From sequence record OP172784: a stretch of DNA of 64,000 bases; one strand, given 5' to 3'. The notes under the pieces are model-generated. The model searched no databases. It worked only from the letters and a program-made list of their open reading frames with translations, and was not told the origin of the DNA. This DNA comes from Escherichia phage ECO07P1. Positions 1,160-37,199 of this stretch are shown piece after piece (position 1 is the stretch's first letter; each line of letters opens with the position of its first letter). The translations under genes and the position numbers were made by a program.

Positions 1160-3139
1160 TTAACCTGCAAGACCAGTTAACTCATCGAAATCTGCACCAG
1201 TAGCAGTTGCGACGAAATTCAAAGTAATATAATTTATACTGCGCGCCGGTTGGATGTAGAATGTTGCAACAAACTCATTTCTATCAATTACTGACGGAGT
1301 GTTATTTGTTGTATCGCAAACTACACGATATTCATAAATTCCACCGAGAGCTTTAATTCCCTGCAAGTACTGGGAAGTTTCTGTGCGGAACGATGAACGA
1401 GTAAACGCGTTGTTTAATTCGAACAAACGATATTTTGAACTACGTCCGATATTCGTTTTCAACATATTAAACAGACGACGAACGTTAATACGATCAAATG
1501 GAGAAGGAACAGAAGTAGCTGTTTTATCACCATACAATACGTAACCATCACCACCTGTACCAGTTACTGGGTTGATAGCTTCTTGGTATAAACGGTCGCG
1601 CTGCGCCTGGCGAGTTTCAATAGCAAGTTTAATAACGTTAAGAATCTGGCCACGATTATAACCAGCTGGAGACATCCAAGTCTGAGAAACGTTATCAGTT
1701 CTTGCGCATAAACCAGCAATATCAGCTGCTAATGGAACCCAACGATTCACATCATTATATTTGTCATACTGATACTTGTAGTTACCATCAATTGCTGCAT
1801 AGGTTGAACTGATATTAAAGTTATTATCAGTGTATGAACCTGCTGCAGTTCTCCAATTGACTAAGTTATCAACAGCACGAGTTACAGGAATTCCAACCAC
1901 AGTTTCACGCGGTGGTGAGCACAATACCAAGCAATCTTGGCGAGCATCACCAATTGAAACAACATGTTTTTGGACAGTAGATGCTGTTTCAAGAGATTCA
2001 CCGGCACAAGAACCAGCAATAAACAACTGAACGTCAACAGATTCACGGTCAGCAAAGAAGTCCCAGGCTTCCATCAAATCTCCTGCTGTTACTTCAGCAT
2101 TTGACGATAATCCACCAGACAGAGTTAAAATTCCGGAGAAGCCTTCTGGCCAGTTTTGTGCAGTTGCGAAAATATATTCTGAACCGCCTTTTGCGAAAAA
2201 GTCATCAATATAGATGTTACTATCGTAAATATCTTTTTCACCACGCTTTGTTGAAAGAACAACGCTTTGAACAATAGCATCATTGCGACGAACTATAATA
2301 GCGTATTGTGAATCAGTTTGTGGTCCATATCCAAACACTGCTTTGGCAGTAGATGCGCGTGTTCCGCCACCTGGATAAATTGGTAGTAATGCAGAAGCAC
2401 CTTTTGCGTAGTCAGCTTTAGATACGATTTCAATTTCGATTTTATCGCCCAACTCGCCTGGATAAAGAGCTACTACTCCTGGAATTCCATATTTTTCGAG
2501 ATTTGTTTGAAAGTCAACAGCTGTCATGGCAGCTTCGGCATTTTCAATTTCAGCTAATAAAATACCAGAATCAGTAATAATTTTTCCAAGAGTTATTACT
2601 GCAGCTAAACCAGAGGAAGACGAAGAAATTTCTGCGGTCCAGTTAGAACCTAGTGCTGGATATTCGCCTACTTCTTTCGCTTTAGCGATAATTTTTGCGG
2701 TAGGAATATTAATTTTCTTAATTTTTCCATCAGCATCTACTTCGGTAATTTTACATTCTGTTTCAATGTCTTCTGAAACATACTTAACCGTGATTTTATC
2801 TCCAACCGCGTAGTTACTACCTGGGGTAGAAATAGTGTATTCAATATTACCGGCAATCGGAGATGAGTTTTTAGCGGTATCTCTATCGACAGCACGCACA
2901 ACTCGCAAATCATTTCCGTATTGTAAGAAATTCATTGCAGACATAAAATAGTCAGCAGTTTCAGCTGTAGGTTGACCAAAAGTATTAACTAAATCTACTT
3001 CATTTGTAACCTGTTTAATTTGAAAAGCAGGACCCCACTGGAATTTACCGGCCAGAGCTGCTGTACCAGTAGAGTTATTAACCACGGTGCTTTGAACCGT
3101 AGTTTCTTTGAGCTCAATGCCCGGAGATAATAAAGTCAT
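1160..3139 (-). CDS. 18: contractile tail sheath protein gp18
   Basis: 659 aa, same length as T4 gp18; position between 17 and 19. Confidence 0.92.
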   Translation of the reverse strand: MTLLSPGIELKETTVQSTVVNNSTGTAALAGKFQWGPAFQIKQVTNEVDLVNTFGQPTAETADYFMSAMNFLQYGNDLRVVRAVDRDTAKNSSPIAGNIEYTISTPGSNYAVGDKITVKYVSEDIETECKITEVDADGKIKKINIPTAKIIAKAKEVGEYPALGSNWTAEISSSSSGLAAVITLGKIITDSGILLAEIENAEAAMTAVDFQTNLEKYGIPGVVALYPGELGDKIEIEIVSKADYAKGASALLPIYPGGGTRASTAKAVFGYGPQTDSQYAIIVRRNDAIVQSVVLSTKRGEKDIYDSNIYIDDFFAKGGSEYIFATAQNWPEGFSGILTLSGGLSSNAEVTAGDLMEAWDFFADRESVDVQLFIAGSCAGESLETASTVQKHVVSIGDARQDCLVLCSPPRETVVGIPVTRAVDNLVNWRTAAGSYTDNNFNISSTYAAIDGNYKYQYDKYNDVNRWVPLAADIAGLCARTDNVSQTWMSPAGYNRGQILNVIKLAIETRQAQRDRLYQEAINPVTGTGGDGYVLYGDKTATSVPSPFDRINVRRLFNMLKTNIGRSSKYRLFELNNAFTRSSFRTETSQYLQGIKALGGIYEYRVVCDTTNNTPSVIDRNEFVATFYIQPARSINYITLNFVATATGADFDELTGLAG

Positions 3140-3167
3140 TTTTAATCCTCTTTAATATGCTTTAATA

Positions 3168-6308
<3,141 letters not shown>

Positions 6309-27237: not shown

Positions 27238-27510
27238 ATGAAAACATTTAAAGAATTTATCAATGAAGCTGCTTTTAACGAAAAAGTAAAAATTAGCAAA
27301 GCTGTCAAGACTATGATTGATAACATCAATTACCTATATGGTATTGATTTAACTGACTATGTAACAGTTGGTAACAAACGTAACTATTTCGTGTTTGACA
27401 TCTCTGAACTTGACCAGAATCAAATTAACAACATTGAGCGTTTTGCTAATGATAAGGGTCTTCGTCATGAGTCAGCGGGTTATAAAAAATACGCAATTTA
27501 TTTAAAATGA
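27238..27510 (+). CDS. internal-protein-like protein with capsid targeting sequence (ipI-locus cassette 1)
   Basis: N-terminus MKTFKEFINE-A matches the T4 IP capsid-targeting sequence with gp21 L/I-x-E cleavage site; own early promoter and GGAG Shine-Dalgarno. Confidence 0.65.
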   Translation: MKTFKEFINEAAFNEKVKISKAVKTMIDNINYLYGIDLTDYVTVGNKRNYFVFDISELDQNQINNIERFANDKGLRHESAGYKKYAIYLK

Positions 27511-27540
27511 GTTTACTTTTAAATAGGGTTGTGGTACTAT
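27511..27540 (+). promoter_or_regulatory. T4-type early promoter
   Basis: GTTTAC-N18-TACTAT. Confidence 0.6.
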
Positions 27541-27570
27541 TATCTCATCAAAATTAATTAGGAAAATAAA

Positions 27571-27879
27571 ATGAAAACATTTAAAGAATTTATCAATGAA
27601 GCGGCTGCACCAAAGACATTCATTATTTATACTCAAGCGGGTCTTGATGATGAGTATGCGGAAGCAATTCTGAGGTCACTTGCTAAGAACGGTGTTGAAG
27701 TAATTGCTTCGGACTTTAAGAAAGGGGCTTCCGAGATGTTTATTTCTATAACTAAAGGATCTAAAGCTAAAATCAAATCATCATTCGGTGTTGCTCGTAC
27801 CGATCAAATCGACAATCATGACTTTAAACAAACTGGTGCTAAACGACAGAATACAATTGCATCACGCGGAATAAAATAG
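27571..27879 (+). CDS. internal-protein-like protein with capsid targeting sequence (cassette 2)
   Basis: N-terminus MKTFKEFINEAA, nucleotide-identical over ~29 nt to the cassette-1 start; own early promoter. Confidence 0.65.
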   Translation: MKTFKEFINEAAAPKTFIIYTQAGLDDEYAEAILRSLAKNGVEVIASDFKKGASEMFISITKGSKAKIKSSFGVARTDQIDNHDFKQTGAKRQNTIASRGIK

Positions 27880-27891
27880 TTTATAAAAACC

Positions 27892-27921
27892 GTTTACTTT
27901 TAGATAGGGTAGTGATACTAT
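27892..27921 (+). promoter_or_regulatory. T4-type early promoter
   Basis: GTTTAC-N18-TACTAT. Confidence 0.6.
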
Positions 27922-27949
27922 TACCCTATCAACTACTGAGGAGAATAAA

Positions 27950-28174
27950 ATGAAAACATGTAAAAAATTTATTGTAGAAGCTAAAAGACACGAAGACGAA
28001 CTGCCTTTTGTTTCAAAAACCTTTGATGGAACATTGGCTGATTTTAAAAAAATTCCTAATGATAAACTTGCTAAATTGGTTGGTTCTATTAGTGAAAAAG
28101 ATGGCAAGGTCACATTTTCTGCTCAAGGCGTTGCCAATCTCAAGAAACTTTTGAAAGCCGCTGGTGTTGAATAA
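27950..28174 (+). CDS. small basic protein with degenerate CTS-like N-terminus (cassette 3)
   Basis: MKTCKKFIVE-A N-terminus; own promoter/RBS module GAGGAGAATAAAATG. Confidence 0.55.
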   Translation: MKTCKKFIVEAKRHEDELPFVSKTFDGTLADFKKIPNDKLAKLVGSISEKDGKVTFSAQGVANLKKLLKAAGVE

Positions 28175-28805: not shown

Positions 28806-28878
28806 TGGGAATTAGCCAAGTTGGTAAGGCACTGGATTTTGATTCCAGGATGCAAAGGTTCGAGTCCTTTATTCCCAG
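28806..28878 (+). tRNA. tRNA-Gln (anticodon UUG)
   Basis: Cloverleaf by eye: acceptor TGGGAAT/ATTCCCA, anticodon loop TTTTGAT, T-arm GGTTCGAGTCC. Confidence 0.85.
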
Positions 28879-28879
28879 C

Positions 28880-28966
28880 GCGAGAATGGTCAAATTGGTA
28901 AAGGCACAGCACTTAAAATGCTGCGGAATGATTTCCTTGTGGGTTCGAGTCCCACTTCTCGCACCA
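28880..28966 (+). tRNA. tRNA-Leu (anticodon UAA), long variable arm, CCA encoded
   Basis: Acceptor GCGAGAA/TTCTCGC, anticodon loop CTTAAAA, T-arm GGTTCGAGTCC, 3' ACCA. Confidence 0.85.
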
Positions 28967-28971
28967 AATTT

Positions 28972-29045
<74 letters not shown>

Positions 29046-29055
29046 ATTTAATTTA

Positions 29056-29129
29056 CTCCGTGTAGCTCAGTTTGGTAGAGCGTCTGCTTTGGGAGCAGAA
29101 TGTCGCAGGTTCAAATCCTGCCGCGGAGA
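29056..29129 (+). tRNA. tRNA-Pro (anticodon UGG)
   Basis: Acceptor CTCCGTG/CGCGGAG, anticodon loop CTTTGGG, T-arm GGTTCAAATCC. Confidence 0.85.
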
Positions 29130-29131
29130 CT

Positions 29132-29221
29132 GGAGGCGTGGCAGAGTGGTTTAATGCACCGGTCTTGAAAACCGGCAGTCGCTCCGGCGACTCATAGGTT
29201 CAAATCCTATCGCCTCCGCCA
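29132..29221 (+). tRNA. tRNA-Ser (anticodon UGA), long variable arm
   Basis: Acceptor GGAGGCG/CGCCTCC, anticodon loop CTTGAAA, T-arm GGTTCAAATCC, 3' GCCA. Confidence 0.85.
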
Positions 29222-29226
29222 GTTTT

Positions 29227-29302
29227 GCTGATTTAGCTTAGTAGGTAGAGCAACTCACTTGTAATGAGAAGGTCGGCGGTTCGATTCCGTCAATCAGCAC
29301 CA
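29227..29302 (+). tRNA. tRNA-Thr (anticodon UGU)
   Basis: Acceptor GCTGATT/AATCAGC, anticodon loop CTTGTAA, T-arm GGTTCGATTCC, 3' ACCA. Confidence 0.85.
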
Positions 29303-29303
29303 A

Positions 29304-29378
29304 GGCCCTGTAGCTGGAAGGTTCAAGCAAGCGACTCATAATCGCCAGATGGTGGTTCAATTCCACCCAGGGCCACCA
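29304..29378 (+). tRNA. tRNA with CAU anticodon (Ile2 lysidine-type by T4 analogy, or Met)
   Basis: Acceptor GGCCCTG/CAGGGCC, anticodon loop TCATAAT, T-arm GGTTCAATTCC, 3' ACCA. Confidence 0.75.
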
Positions 29379-29391
29379 AATTAAGAATTAA

Positions 29392-29478
29392 GGGGAGTTA
29401 TCCCGTAGAGGTAGCGGTGTGGACTGTAAATCCATTGTCATTGCGACTCGGGTGGTTCGACTCCATCACTCCCCACCA
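29392..29478 (+). tRNA. tRNA-Tyr (anticodon GUA), class II long variable arm
   Basis: Acceptor GGGGAGT/ACTCCCC, anticodon stem GTGGA/TCCAT with loop CTGTAAA, T-arm GGTGGTTCGACTCCATC, 3' ACCA. Confidence 0.75.
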
Positions 29479-29482
29479 ATTT

Positions 29483-29557
29483 GGATGTGTAGCTCAATGG
29501 CAGAGCGATCGCCTGTTAAGCGATTGGTTATAGGTTCGAATCCTATCACGTCCGCCA
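29483..29557 (+). tRNA. tRNA-Asn (anticodon GUU)
   Basis: Acceptor GGATGTG/CACGTCC, anticodon loop CTGTTAA, T-arm GGTTCGAATCC, 3' GCCA. Confidence 0.8.
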
Positions 29558-29561
29558 AATC

Positions 29562-29637
29562 CGAGGCATAGCTCAGAAGGAAGAGCAAGGACCTTCTAAG
29601 TCCTAGGTCGTAGGTTCGATCCCTACTGCCTCGACCA
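29562..29637 (+). tRNA. tRNA-Arg (anticodon UCU)
   Basis: Acceptor CGAGGCA/TGCCTCG, anticodon loop CTTCTAA, T-arm GGTTCGATCCC, 3' ACCA. Confidence 0.85.
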
Positions 29638-29653
29638 ATTAAGTGAGGAAAAT

Positions 29654-30004
29654 ATGAAAGGTAATGTTTATTTAGTAGTTCATGATTTAACATTCTATTT
29701 TAATCATAATGACACTGTTATTTCTGAACGCGTAATTAATTTGCTTTATCAGCACGCAGATTATGTTTATGTCGAAAACGAATACGGTCATTGGCAATTT
29801 CTCAAAAATCGTTCATTTGGTTTAGATGGTTACGAATACTTTGAACGTAAAGACCTTTTAGATAAAATTCCATTATCTACACAATATCAAAATCACAAGT
29901 CTTTACATAAATGCCGTCCAATTCGAAATGTTGAATCTGCGTATGAAGCAATTGATTTGTGGCGTAAACGCCGTGAACAGATTGATGCTTTAAAAGAATA
30001 TTAA
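29654..30004 (+). CDS. hypothetical protein
   Basis: 116 aa ORF directly after tRNA-Arg with GAGGAA Shine-Dalgarno. Confidence 0.55.
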   Translation: MKGNVYLVVHDLTFYFNHNDTVISERVINLLYQHADYVYVENEYGHWQFLKNRSFGLDGYEYFERKDLLDKIPLSTQYQNHKSLHKCRPIRNVESAYEAIDLWRKRREQIDALKEY

Positions 30005-30355
30005 GAAACCGGGTCGCTACCGGTAAGTCGTCGGACTGATGTTCCCTGGGTAAGGACTGGCATTAACAAATCTTTACGATTTGTTAATGTCCCCTTACAT
30101 CACAGCAGAAACGGCGCACCGAATTATCGATTCGAGGAAATATCTTTGCCGTAAGCCGAGTAGCGTTTTTGACGGAACGTTCGGATATGGTCGAGATATG
30201 GCCTTTTAAAAATATTAAGTAGCGTCAACTGCTTAATAACCGGGTTCGAATCCCGGCGTTTCGTACAAACACTTGCCTTAGCAGGTGGAACCCCGACAAG
30301 GTTGCCGCAAGGCTTAGCCCCGACCGAAAGGTTGGGGCTTTTTAGTTTGAATCAC
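30005..30355 (+). ncRNA. putative stable small RNA region (T4 rnaC/rnaD-like)
   Basis: No ORF; higher GC than surroundings; hairpins (TTAACAAATC...GATTTGTTAA), tRNA-like T-arm CCGGGTTCGAATCCCGG, ends in 10-bp GAAA-tetraloop hairpin plus T-run. Confidence 0.4.
30326..30353 (+). terminator. rho-independent terminator
   Basis: 10-bp stem AGCCCCGACC/GGTTGGGGCT, GAAA loop, then TTTTT. Confidence 0.7.
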
Positions 30356-30433
30356 TCGGATAACGCTGTTACGGATAATAACAAAGTAATAAATAATTAA
30401 TAACCAACCGATAGATTATTTCAAGGATTTTAA

Positions 30434-30997
30434 ATGAAAACTTATGCCGAATTTTTAACCGAAGCAGCAAAATTACCATCTGAAGCAGAACTTACTAAAG
30501 TATTCTTCCAATTGGACCCAAAAGACCGTGGCGATTTTCTTAAGTGGAAAGCTAAAGCTATTGAAATGTATAACATTGATAATAGTTCTTTTACGATGAG
30601 TCAAGAAAATAAATTCAATAAAGCATTTTTCAAAATTTCTAAGAAACTGGCATCTGGCGCTCAGGTTCCTAAATCTGCCTTAGCTACTCCTGAACGTGCG
30701 CCTGTTAAAATTTCTAAGAATATGTTCGACACTAAAAAATACGTTAATGCTTTGAATAAAGCTCTTGATGCATTGGATGATGCAAAGAAGGCAGCCCGTG
30801 ATCTTCAAGACGTGTACATCGATTTTGATCGTAAAACTAAAGGTTCTATTTCAAATAGCGAACGCAATAGTGTAAGCGTTTATTCTGATAGCCTTGACGT
30901 TCTTGGCGATGCGTATACTGAAATTAAAAATCGTATTAACACCGCATCTAAACTAAAAGCTGCCGCAGAAGCTATAATAGCTAAACTAGATAAATAA
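30434..30997 (+). CDS. capsid-targeting-sequence protein, candidate novel internal protein
   Basis: 187 aa; N-terminus MKTYAEFLTE-A (CTS with L-x-E cleavage site); Lys/Ala/Asp-rich; terminator follows. Confidence 0.6.
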   Translation: MKTYAEFLTEAAKLPSEAELTKVFFQLDPKDRGDFLKWKAKAIEMYNIDNSSFTMSQENKFNKAFFKISKKLASGAQVPKSALATPERAPVKISKNMFDTKKYVNALNKALDALDDAKKAARDLQDVYIDFDRKTKGSISNSERNSVSVYSDSLDVLGDAYTEIKNRINTASKLKAAAEAIIAKLDK

Positions 30998-31005
30998 TTT
31001 TAAAT

Positions 31006-31030
31006 CCCTATCTAAATGATAGGGCTTTTT
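31006..31030 (+). terminator. rho-independent terminator
   Basis: CCCTATCTAAATGATAGGG hairpin then CTTTTT. Confidence 0.6.
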
Positions 31031-31164: not shown

Positions 31165-31194
31165 GTTTACATCCCCGTTCTTCCATGGTACTAT
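31165..31194 (+). promoter_or_regulatory. T4-type early promoter
   Basis: TTTTCACAAAACTGTTTAC-N18-TACTAT. Confidence 0.6.
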
Positions 31195-34673: not shown

Positions 34674-35476
<803 letters not shown>

Positions 35477-35477
35477 T

Positions 35478-35507
35478 GTTTACTTCCTCCAAGGACTTTG
35501 ATACTAT
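35478..35507 (+). promoter_or_regulatory. T4-type early promoter (denV)
   Basis: GTTTAC-N18-TACTAT. Confidence 0.6.
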
Positions 35508-35534
35508 ACATTCATCAACTACTTGGAGGAAATT

Positions 35535-35948
35535 ATGACTCGTATCAATTTAACACTTGTTTCTGAACTGACCGACCAACATCTTATGGCTGAGTATCGT
35601 GAATTACCACGCGTATTTGGTGCAGTCCGTAAACATGTTCAAAACGGTAAACGTGTAAAGGATTTTAAAATCTCTCCAACATTTATCTTAGGCACAGGTC
35701 ACGTAACATTCTTTTACGACAAACTCGAATTTTTACGTTTACGTCAAATCGAGCTAATCGCTGAATGCTTGAAACGTGGTTTCAAAATCAAGGACACGAC
35801 TGTCCAGGATATTTCCGACATCCCTGTCGAATTTCGTAATAATTATGTCCCGTCCGAAGCGTCCATTGCGATAAGTCAAGCTCGCTTAGATGAAAAAATT
35901 GCTCAACGCCCTACTTGGTACAAATACTATGGTAAATCAATTTACTAA
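35535..35948 (+). CDS. denV: endonuclease V, pyrimidine-dimer DNA glycosylase
   Basis: [35 protein letters not shown]..., near-identical to T4 DenV; early promoter upstream. Confidence 0.92.
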
Positions 35949-35954
35949 GGAAAA

Positions 35955-36213
35955 ATGAAAATGTATCAAGAATTTATCGCTGAAGCAGATGCCAAAGGCC
36001 CCAAATTTAAAGTTAAAGCTTTCGTTGGTGATGCGGAAGACTTTGGCTCATTAAAACGTAATGGGTATTTTTCCTAGGCGGCGATGGTAGAGAAATAAAC
36101 ACCTATGCAAAACGTAGTGAATTGCTTATGTTGCTGCAAGTCCTAAAGTAGATGTTGACGATATTGGATACGATTTTAACAACTTCGGAATTATTTCTGG
36201 CGGTGAAGCTTAA
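35955..36213 (+). pseudogene. decayed internal-protein gene remnant
   Basis: Starts MKMYQEFIAEADAKGP (CTS-like), stops after 40 codons; remaining sequence has short ORFs in other frames. Confidence 0.45.
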
Positions 36214-36216
36214 ACG

Positions 36217-36246
36217 GTTTACGCTTAAGTATTAATATGGTATAAT
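36217..36246 (+). promoter_or_regulatory. T4-type early promoter (ipIII-like)
   Basis: GTTTAC-N18-TATAAT. Confidence 0.6.
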
Positions 36247-36276
36247 TACTCTATCAAAACAAACAAGGAAACAAAA

Positions 36277-36855
36277 ATGAAAACGTATAAAGAATTTATT
36301 GCTGAAGCTTCTGTGGAAAAGGCCAAAGGCATTAATAAGGACGAGTGGAACTATCGTGGTGGAAACGGCTTTGACCCTAAAACTGCTCCACTTGAACGAT
36401 ATCTAGCCACAAAAGCTTCTGACTTTAAAGCTTTCGCTTGGGAAGGACTTCGCTGGCGTACCGATCTAAATATTGAAGTTGATGGGCTTAAATTTGGCCA
36501 TATTCAAGATGTTGTTGCTAGTAACTTGGATGCAGCTTTTGTTAAAGCTGACGGTGACCTTCGTCGCTGGAATTTAAAACTATTCTCTAAACAGAAAGGC
36601 CCGGTGTTTGTGCCTAAAGCTGGTAAATGGGTTATTGATAATAAATTAGCTAAGGCTGTCAACTACGCTGGTCTTGAATTCGCCAAGCACAAATCATCAT
36701 GGAAAGGTCTGGATGCAATGGCTTTCCGTAAAGAATTTGCTGATGTTATGGCTAAAGGCGGCTTTAAGGCAGAAATAGATACCTCTAAAGGTACGTTTAA
36801 GGACGCTAATGTTCAGTACGCTTATGCCGTTGCTAACGCAGCCCGTGGTAATTAA
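36277..36855 (+). CDS. ipIII: internal protein III-like
   Basis: 192 aa; MKTYKEFIAE-A CTS; length and N-terminus match T4 IPIII from memory. Confidence 0.7.
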   Translation: MKTYKEFIAEASVEKAKGINKDEWNYRGGNGFDPKTAPLERYLATKASDFKAFAWEGLRWRTDLNIEVDGLKFGHIQDVVASNLDAAFVKADGDLRRWNLKLFSKQKGPVFVPKAGKWVIDNKLAKAVNYAGLEFAKHKSSWKGLDAMAFRKEFADVMAKGGFKAEIDTSKGTFKDANVQYAYAVANAARGN

Positions 36856-36896
36856 TAAGGCCGATACTTAGGCTTATTTACATTTAAAGGAAACAT

Positions 36897-37199
36897 ATGA
36901 AAACATATCAAGAATTTATTACTGAAGCTCGAGTGAGTGCAGGTAAATTAGAATCCGCTATAAATAAAAAGGCCCATTCATTTCATGATTTGTCCGATAA
37001 AGACCGTAAGAAACTTATAAGCCTTTATATTGACAAAGAGCGTATTCTCGCTCTTCCTGGCGCTAATGAAGGTAAACAGGCCAAGCCTTTGAATGCTGTC
37101 GAAAAGAAAATTGATAACTTTGCTTCTAAATTCGGTATGTCTATGGATGACCTTCAGCAAGCGGCTATCGAAGCAGCTAAAGTAATTAAAGGTAAATAA
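36897..37199 (+). CDS. ipII: internal protein II-like
   Basis: 100 aa; MKTYQEFITE-A CTS; length matches T4 IPII. Confidence 0.65.
   Translation: MKTYQEFITEARVSAGKLESAINKKAHSFHDLSDKDRKKLISLYIDKERILALPGANEGKQAKPLNAVEKKIDNFASKFGMSMDDLQQAAIEAAKVIKGK

Follow-up and report, generated by a model that had tools for sequence, protein, structure and literature searches.

A leader-bearing gene between the tRNA block and e.8 of T4-like phages encodes a probable internal head protein

The stretch of DNA analysed here (the window) comprises 64,000 nt of Escherichia phage ECO07P1 (sequence record OP172784). It belongs to a Tequatrovirus, and its gene order is that of T4 read on the minus strand. All positions are given in window numbering. 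The subject of this report is one open reading frame (ORF) of 187 amino acids (aa), ORF187 (30434..30997, plus strand), a genuine gene whose product is, in our judgement, likely to be a late-expressed internal head protein of T4-like phages, not named before and belonging to the family phrog_2280. The ORF starts at MKTYAEFLTEAA, and a Shine–Dalgarno sequence, AAGGA (30423-30427, plus strand), lies 6 nt ahead of the ATG and is invariant in five carrier phages. Codons 1-10 (30434..30463) encode MKTYAEFLTE, predicted to be a capsid targeting sequence (CTS) and propeptide from the sequence itself, the rules established for the CTS and conservation in the family. The rest of the ORF (30464..30997, including the stop codon) encodes the predicted mature protein (residues 11-187; 177 aa, 19.7 kDa, isoelectric point (pI) 9.46). 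An intrinsic terminator identified by a terminator scan follows (31006..31030, plus strand), with a hairpin at 31006-31024 (CCCTATC-TAAAT-GATAGGG) and then CTTTTT; it is kept in RB69. The first-pass annotation of the window had given these coordinates, length and N-terminus, and had assigned the gene its own Shine–Dalgarno sequence and terminator; all of this is correct.

ORF187 is located in an accessory cassette of ~685 bp (30346..31030, plus strand), delimited by alignment with T4 and without counterpart in T4 or T6. The T4 annotation has no gene between e.8 and rnaC, and the same is true of the T6 annotation. Upstream are ten tRNA genes (28806-29637) followed by the 3' part of an rnaC-like stable RNA and its terminator (30230..30345, plus strand; stem 30316-30339 plus a T run, by terminator scan), near-identical by eye to the 3' end of T4 rnaC. 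Downstream are an early promoter (31166-31194) and the e.8 homologue. The gene thus lies where it had first been placed, after the terminator of the rnaC-like RNA (ending about 30345) and before the e.8 homologue. Both ends of the cassette fall at the 3' half of a terminator (...GGGCTTTTT): the start directly follows the rnaC terminator (...GGTTGGGGCTTTTT), and the end is the cassette's own terminator (...GATAGGGCTTTTT), beyond which the sequence is again homologous to T4. The interior is laid out as a late-promoter-like motif, the Shine–Dalgarno sequence, the ORF and the terminator. The cassette is a self-contained, 'moron-like' unit of promoter-like motif, ORF and terminator, present as a 685-bp indel between conserved flanks, and the locus holds zero, one or two cassettes according to the phage.

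Over the segment 30300-31100 the window and Escherichia phage EP01 share 100% identity. EP01 has a fourth internal protein (IP) gene at the ipI locus, so the window differs from it outside the ORF187 region. In RB69, which belongs to another genus, the cassette is present with 96% identity in DNA, and this level of identity between genera implies recent horizontal exchange of the cassette. In the RB69 record, RB69ORF149c and ORF148c are one gene split by a 1-nt deletion (L008, 11429-11991, minus strand); the split marks a true pseudogene or else a sequencing error in the record, which dates from 2003. In the allele of Shigella phage CT01 (L004, 1201-1689), two KISK-coding repeats bound an in-frame deletion. 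The ~25 residues lost are exactly the predicted flexible linker, and the two helical domains are joined directly.

Divergent copies of ORF187 show a synonymous rate (dS) of 0.15-0.21 and a nonsynonymous rate (dN) of 0.009-0.028, with dN/dS of 0.06-0.17. ORF187 is therefore a genuine gene, and it is under strong purifying selection. The idea of a chance ORF or mis-annotation without a functional gene could draw on the uniform 'hypothetical' label in database annotations and on the RB69 record, which splits the ORF in two. It conflicts with the dN/dS values, the intact copies in 164 phage records, the distant homologues in many genera, the confidently predicted domain fold (mean predicted local distance difference test, pLDDT, 80) and the conservation of Shine–Dalgarno sequence, promoter motif and terminator alike. 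The conservation data effectively refute this explanation, to which we attach a vanishingly small probability.

The published T4 CTS is MKTYQEFIAE, and the ORF187 leader is identical to it at 7/10 positions. In the mutational mapping by Mullaney and Black, as summarised in later literature, targeting depends chiefly on residues 4 and 7 and processing on residues 8 and 10, and gp21 cleaves behind L/I-x-E. All four mapped positions are matched in ORF187, by Tyr4 and Phe7 for targeting and Leu8 and Glu10 for processing, and the first-pass description of a gp21-cleavable leader of IP type agrees with this match. LTE at residues 8-10 is the sole L/I-x-E motif in the whole of ORF187, and cleavage is predicted at L8-T9-E10↓A11. 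A scan of all six frames of the 64 kb with the pattern MKTxx[EK]FxxE returned seven matches. All are at the starts of plus-strand ORFs in the interval 27.2-37.2 kb, and the rest of the six-frame translation has none. Since every match falls at such a position, the ORF187 leader is beyond chance. Five of the six other leader-bearing ORFs belong to PHROG internal head or virion families or are homologues of IPIII or IPII. The first 10 residues of IPIII suffice for packaging foreign proteins, according to the literature, and internal proteins are described as basic and about 8-20 kDa in size.

The leader is also a property of the family as a whole. It is present in 43/45 cluster representatives of phrog_2280, the remaining two resembling N-terminally truncated gene calls. 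Glu10, an aromatic residue at position 4 and F/I at position 7 are each found in 43/43 leaders, and L/I at position 8 in 42/43, while positions 2, 3, 5 and 9 vary freely. The invariant positions are those mapped for targeting and cleavage, and the leader is kept across a family diverged to ~20% identity to ORF187. In the AlphaFold model, residues 1-12 form a disordered leader segment (pLDDT about 40); the leader is therefore predicted to be accessible. Most branches other than that of ORF187 have a second conserved site (LNE↓A, ITE↓A or INE↓A) 5-8 residues past the first, as in JS98 (L012, 3501-4118), PG7 (L013, 3001-3654) and P0013; ORF187 has PSE followed by A at that place. By analogy with the 19-residue propeptide of IPI, the second site suggests a longer propeptide that would be removed in two steps. 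The gp21/gp22 scaffold-protease system is presumed for this phage from its taxonomy, and gp21 would be expected outside the window from T4 synteny.

The late-promoter-like octamer AATAAATA (30388..30395, plus strand) lies 46 nt upstream of the ATG; the T4 consensus is TATAAATA. A motif of the form [T/A/G]ATAAATA is found at −35 to −46, directly after the terminator hairpin, at 10/10 first-in-array loci whose flanks are otherwise dissimilar. These are the loci of ORF187, of seven relatives from other genera or lineages and of two sister cassettes (see below), and they cover Tequatro-, Mosig-, Dhaka-, Karam-, Winkler-, Teguna- and Jiaodavirus. As the motif would be expected by chance at roughly 0.002 per locus, its presence at all ten is strong evidence that the genes of the family share a late promoter. 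A scan of 30346-30433 gave no sigma-70-type promoter for ORF187, and inspection of the same interval by eye gave no convincing middle promoter with a MotA box. The three IP genes of the ipI locus and the IPIII gene of the window have early promoters of the form GTTTAC-N17-TAnnnT and lack a late motif within 160 nt. Two TATAAATA motifs recovered ahead of gene e served as a positive control. ORF187 is probably expressed late, and late-only expression would be consistent with a head protein.

ORF187 matches phrog_2280 (annotated 'unknown function') with E=3.4e-53 over residues 1-181 and profile positions 1-178 of 178. The same profile matches the proteins of JS98, PG7, fHe-Yen9-01 and HP3 (gp116) and all scanned members, including the sister cassette. 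Close homologues (83-100% identical) are found intact in 164 phage records, all as 'hypothetical'. Word-seeded and exhaustive HMMER searches from ORF187 gave almost nothing more distant except P0013 (204 aa, 32% identity). A search from P0013 led to the wider family, 45 cluster representatives and 190 further phage records, with members in Karamvirus, Dhakavirus, Mosigvirus (HX01), Winklervirus, Tegunavirus and Jiaodavirus. A search of IMG/VR for distant relatives gave close copies only. With leaders removed, hhalign aligns the ORF187 branch with the other genera at 96% probability (E=2.7e-9, 153 columns), so the homology is independent of the leader.

The position of the gene is shared as well. 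A family gene lies just downstream of the tRNA block in JS98, PG7, CHI14, K65PH164 and contig L003, and just upstream of e.8 in JS98 and PG7. Silas et al. described the T4 Ips as lying in 'two distinct loci'; by synteny, the interval between the tRNA block and e.8 is a third, conserved locus of IP type, wanting in T4 and T6. The first-pass statement that ORF187 lies outside the classical IP loci is right relative to T4, but many T4-like genera have this locus as the conserved home of the family. In the databases and literature searched, family and locus are nowhere named as an internal protein. That the family has escaped recognition as an Ip is probably due to its absence from the models T4 and T6.

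In HP3, phiC120 and PhAPEC2, a leader-bearing ORF of 154-157 aa (MKSYTQFLNE or MKSYAEFLTE) lies immediately upstream of the ORF187 cassette and forms a sister cassette (L005 893-1366, L006 611-1075 and L007 613-1077, respectively). Yersinia phage fD1 has the sister cassette only (g140; L015 7943-8416) and does not carry ORF187. BLASTP of ORF187 against the neighbouring sister cassette aligns the leader only. With leaders removed, hhalign gives 81% (E=1.3e-5) for the sister cassette against the other genera and no significant result against ORF187 directly. The sister cassette is a probable divergent paralogue of ORF187. An exact copy of the rnaC terminator follows it in HP3 and close variants follow it in phiC120 and PhAPEC2, which suggests that cassettes may be duplicated or exchanged through their terminators. 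In fHe-Yen9-01 (L016), two leader ORFs stand in tandem (2501-3070, 189 aa, MLQYNEFLKE; 3080-3616, 178 aa, MLEYSEFLKE). They are probably a further duplication at the locus, and the second ORF has no late motif of its own.

On contig L003 (Logan SRR28624380), the family member P0013 (leader MITFNEFLNE) sits in an array of leader-tagged proteins, an arrangement that recalls packaged Alt. It is directly followed by a gene (2092-2526) for a 144-aa ART-PolyVal/DUF3990 ADP-ribosyltransferase-like protein with the leader MITFKQFLNE↓S, and CATAAATA is located ~30 nt upstream of that gene. The protein may be a packaged ADP-ribosylating effector other than Alt. The MITF pair had suggested that the leader dialect tracks the resident phage; the idea was retracted, as the other IPs of PG7 have MKTY and its family member MLNF. 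JS98 has two further leader ORFs between 57B and trna.4 that are unannotated in RefSeq (L012 7-216, MKSYKEFLTE..., 69 aa; L012 296-589, MKTYQEFIKE..., 97 aa).

Structure prediction had been put forward in the first-pass annotation as a way to examine the protein, and AlphaFold, run with a 32-sequence alignment, gave a confident model (mean pLDDT 80) that has no characterised match. The N-terminal domain (residues 17-73) is a small four-helix unit (pLDDT about 77-87) and is by sequence the most conserved part of the family. The linker (residues about 74-99) has no regular secondary structure, is basic and partly Pro/Ala/Lys-rich, and has the lowest confidence at residues 80-88. The C-terminal domain (residues 100-186) is long and helical (pLDDT 90-96). 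In most branches and other genera the linker has 45-53 residues and is Pro/Ala/Lys-rich and net basic, and the C-terminal domain is of at least two unrelated-looking types, exchanged between branches. Foldseek against the PDB gave nothing with E<1, BFVD gave uncharacterised family members only, and a profile search of the PDB gave nothing. Scans against Pfam, NCBIfam and PADLOC gave no match; the best Pfam hit, cytochrome b562 (E=0.008, 17 bits against a cut-off of 30 bits), was dismissed as helical-bundle noise. With no match to a fold or domain library, the function is unreadable from homology.

The remaining leader-bearing genes of the window lie on either side of ORF187. The ipI locus (27238..28174, plus strand) has three tandem CTS-bearing IP genes (27238-27510, 27571-27879 and 27950-28174; 90, 102 and 74 aa), each under an early promoter of its own, GTTTAC-N17-TACTAT; their leader-coding stretches are nearly identical. 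The region on the e/denV side (35195..37199, plus strand) has an Ip5-like ORF (35195-35476), the IPIII homologue (36277-36855) and the IPII homologue (36897-37199). The Ip5-like ORF (93 aa, the leader followed by S) shares 4 nt with the end of the lysozyme gene e. It matches phrog_3499 ('internal head protein'), is the counterpart of Ip5/RB69ORF127c and differs from the other IPs in its near-neutral pI of 6.3 and its four L/I-x-E motifs. A promoter motif belonging to it is also lacking within 160 nt, so it may be co-transcribed or translationally coupled with e. In the tRNA block (28806-30004, plus strand), there are ten tRNA genes compared to T4's eight, Tyr and Asn having been added and a gene with a CAU anticodon being called Met. 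The homing endonuclease gene segB of T4 is replaced by a 116-aa ORF (29654-30004) that resembles RB69ORF150c by eye. Rfam, which was also scanned, has no model detecting the stable RNAs rnaC and rnaD.

Taken together, the data suggest the following course. Transcription would start at the gp55-type late promoter AATAAATA (30388-30395), between the two terminators, as the conservation of the motif indicates. The leader MKTYAEFLTE would very likely act as a CTS and bring the protein into the prohead scaffolding core. Slightly less firmly, gp21 would be expected to cut after Leu8-Thr9-Glu10, leaving a basic 19.7-kDa protein that starts AAKLPSEAELTK and is kept in the head with the DNA. The sequence evidence makes this sequence of late transcription, leader-driven entry into the core and cleavage after Glu10 a well-supported prediction. 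The first-pass proposal that a CTS-bearing protein is probably packaged and cleaved by gp21 fits the four leader positions, the family-wide leader, the upstream late motif and the basic, IPIII-sized mature protein. By analogy with T4 IPI, IPII and IPIII, of each of which a head contains ~360-370 copies, the protein would then be ejected into the cell with the genome. What it would do there is a matter of speculation. Ip1-3 are injected and each inhibits a distinct GmrSD type IV restriction enzyme (Silas et al.), and IPIII, which the phage requires to grow on ECOR17, is still effective when made in the host without a CTS. ORF187 might likewise bind and neutralise a 'first-response' defence protein of the host, with the exchangeable helical C-terminal domain conceivably acting as the specificity module; we rate such an anti-defence role, proposed solely by analogy with Ip1-3, at somewhat below an even chance. 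Silas et al. describe five further anti-T-even GmrSD classes without a known inhibitor, and ip4-10 gave no reproducible hits against the new GmrSD classes. A broader scheme, in which phrog_2280 would be a pan-Tevenvirinae set of late-only, capsid-delivered modular proteins that counter defences outside the range of Ip1-3 (one of the five orphan GmrSD classes or another first-response system), with C-terminal domain swaps and duplications recording the arms race, is more doubtful still.

Several observations weigh against an internal head protein with an effector role. The literature yielded no virion proteome of a phage that carries ORF187, the papers on fPS-65/-90 and LC53 being without one. 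The sister paralogue fD1 g140, listed as particle-associated in liquid chromatography–tandem mass spectrometry of purified particles, lends weak support, but that proteome, dataset PXD026812, is permissive (137/277 phage proteins and 672 host proteins detected) and g140 is only marginally related to ORF187 (hhalign 81%, to the broad branch). Were g140 processed by gp21, its N-terminus would be AVLNEASSTEIQAVAK or ASSTEIQAVAK. AATAAATA departs from TATAAATA at −13, where it has A and not T, its only mismatch (A or T at −13 is reported in many T4-like phages), and in this AT-rich genome the 8-mer occurs 22 times per 128,000 positions, which for a single site is near chance. The mature family proteins are not depleted in internal L/I-x-E motifs (56 observed against 48.8 expected), and depletion of internal gp21 motifs was dropped as a line of support. 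Beyond the leader, ORF187 showed no relatedness to Ip1-3 in BLASTP against the IPIII of the window; Ip1-3 did not appear in the exhaustive family searches, with Ip1 and Ip2 not compared pairwise. Ip1, Ip2 and Ip3 are themselves mutually non-homologous. The predicted fold has no characterised counterpart. Finally, strong conservation and synteny across genera set the family apart from the hypervariable IPs of the arms race, and such conservation fits a capsid-internal role as well as an effector role.

This last point leads to the main alternative, that the protein is packaged and processed but has a job inside the capsid (head assembly, DNA packaging or condensation, or ejection) and none in anti-defence. 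In favour of such a job are the constant position of the family in seven or more genera and the strong purifying selection on it. The mature protein is basic, and its linker is net basic and in most branches 45-53 Pro/Ala/Lys-rich residues long. Basic linkers of this composition resemble the DNA-binding tails of histone H1-like proteins. IPs bind DNA at low salt, and a part in head morphogenesis has been suggested for IPIII, mutants of which show aberrations of head assembly. Yet the gene is dispensable, since T4 and T6 lack it and the RB69 record has it with a frameshift, and the CT01 allele lacks the linker entirely. C-terminal domain swaps and tandem duplication are more typical of host-interaction genes, and all three characterised IPs are anti-restriction proteins. 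We give the capsid-internal job roughly one chance in four or five. Lower again is the probability that the leader is a relic of IP-cassette shuffling on a late cytoplasmic protein that does not enter heads. IP cassettes do recombine, rnaC terminator copies flank successive cassettes, and in PG7 a family leader MLNFKEFITE stands beside IP leaders beginning MKTY..., so that leader and resident phage are not tightly co-adapted. A relic would decay, however, and the four mapped positions are essentially invariant at ~20% identity while their neighbours vary, which makes this explanation quite unlikely; the literature finding that 10 IPIII residues are enough to package foreign proteins, and a conserved late motif that matches the timing of head assembly, also speak against it. 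An internal head protein, packaged through its leader and cleaved by gp21, is the reading we prefer.

Hundreds of T4-like phages of the therapeutic type carry the gene, with hosts in Escherichia, Shigella, Yersinia, Enterobacter, Klebsiella and Serratia. If the protein is packaged, it adds a third IP locus, provides a defined candidate against orphan defences and may affect the host range of therapy phages; its two-domain, linker-joined architecture would be a natural scaffold for CTS-based protein delivery. It would also represent, to our knowledge, the first IP family conserved across genera. The finding will not surprise a T4 specialist, but it offers a concrete and easily tested candidate while the functions of IPs are being worked out.

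Among known proteins the closest parallel is IPIII. Both have an N-terminal CTS (MKTYKEFIAE in the IPIII of the window, MKTYAEFLTE in ORF187) with a single L/I-x-E site at residues 8-10, both are accessory and non-essential in T-even phages, and the mature proteins are alike in size and charge (19.7 kDa and pI 9.46 for ORF187, 20.2 kDa and pI 9.60 for the IPIII of the window). The first-pass claim that ORF187 is about twice the size of classical IPs fails on this comparison, the IPIII homologue of the window having 192 aa and T4 IPIII 193 aa against 187. The sequences show no similarity past residues 1-12; BLASTP aligns the leader only, and ORF187 was rejected as an IPIII homologue. IPIII is located on the e/denV side and has an early sigma-70-type promoter, whereas ORF187 lies between rnaC and e.8 and has only the late-type motif. 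Ip3 has a demonstrated target, the GmrSD of ECOR17, and ORF187 has none. T4 Alt, a packaged ADP-ribosyltransferase, is larger and is likewise packaged in the head, processed by gp21 and injected, and an ART-like gene adjoins a distant ORF187 homologue; unlike in Alt, no enzymatic domain is detectable in ORF187 by Pfam, NCBIfam, PADLOC or fold search.

ORF187 shares with IPI (Ip1) and with Ip4-Ip10 of T2, T6 and the RB phages the character of a small, basic, CTS-tagged protein on an interchangeable cassette, polymorphic for presence and absence between close relatives. Ip5 and Ip6 replace ipI beside 57B in T6, as its annotation shows, whereas ORF187 is at the third locus. The T6 annotation suggests that ORF187 is not one of ip4-10. 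The ORF187 family is conserved across genera and is not a lineage-specific orphan like IPI and Ip4-Ip10. The other named Ips reportedly also lie beside 57B. The nearest relatives are RB69ORF149c/148c, JS98 orf135 and PG7 gp146, which belong to the same phrog_2280 family at the same locus and of which none is annotated as an internal protein; compared with the members from other genera, ORF187 has a shorter linker and no second L/I-x-E↓A site. A CTS-tagged IP on an accessory cassette is a well-known kind of gene, and it is the family and the locus that are newly recognised as being of IP type. Conservation across genera and an apparently late-only promoter distinguish phrog_2280 from the classical hypervariable IPs.

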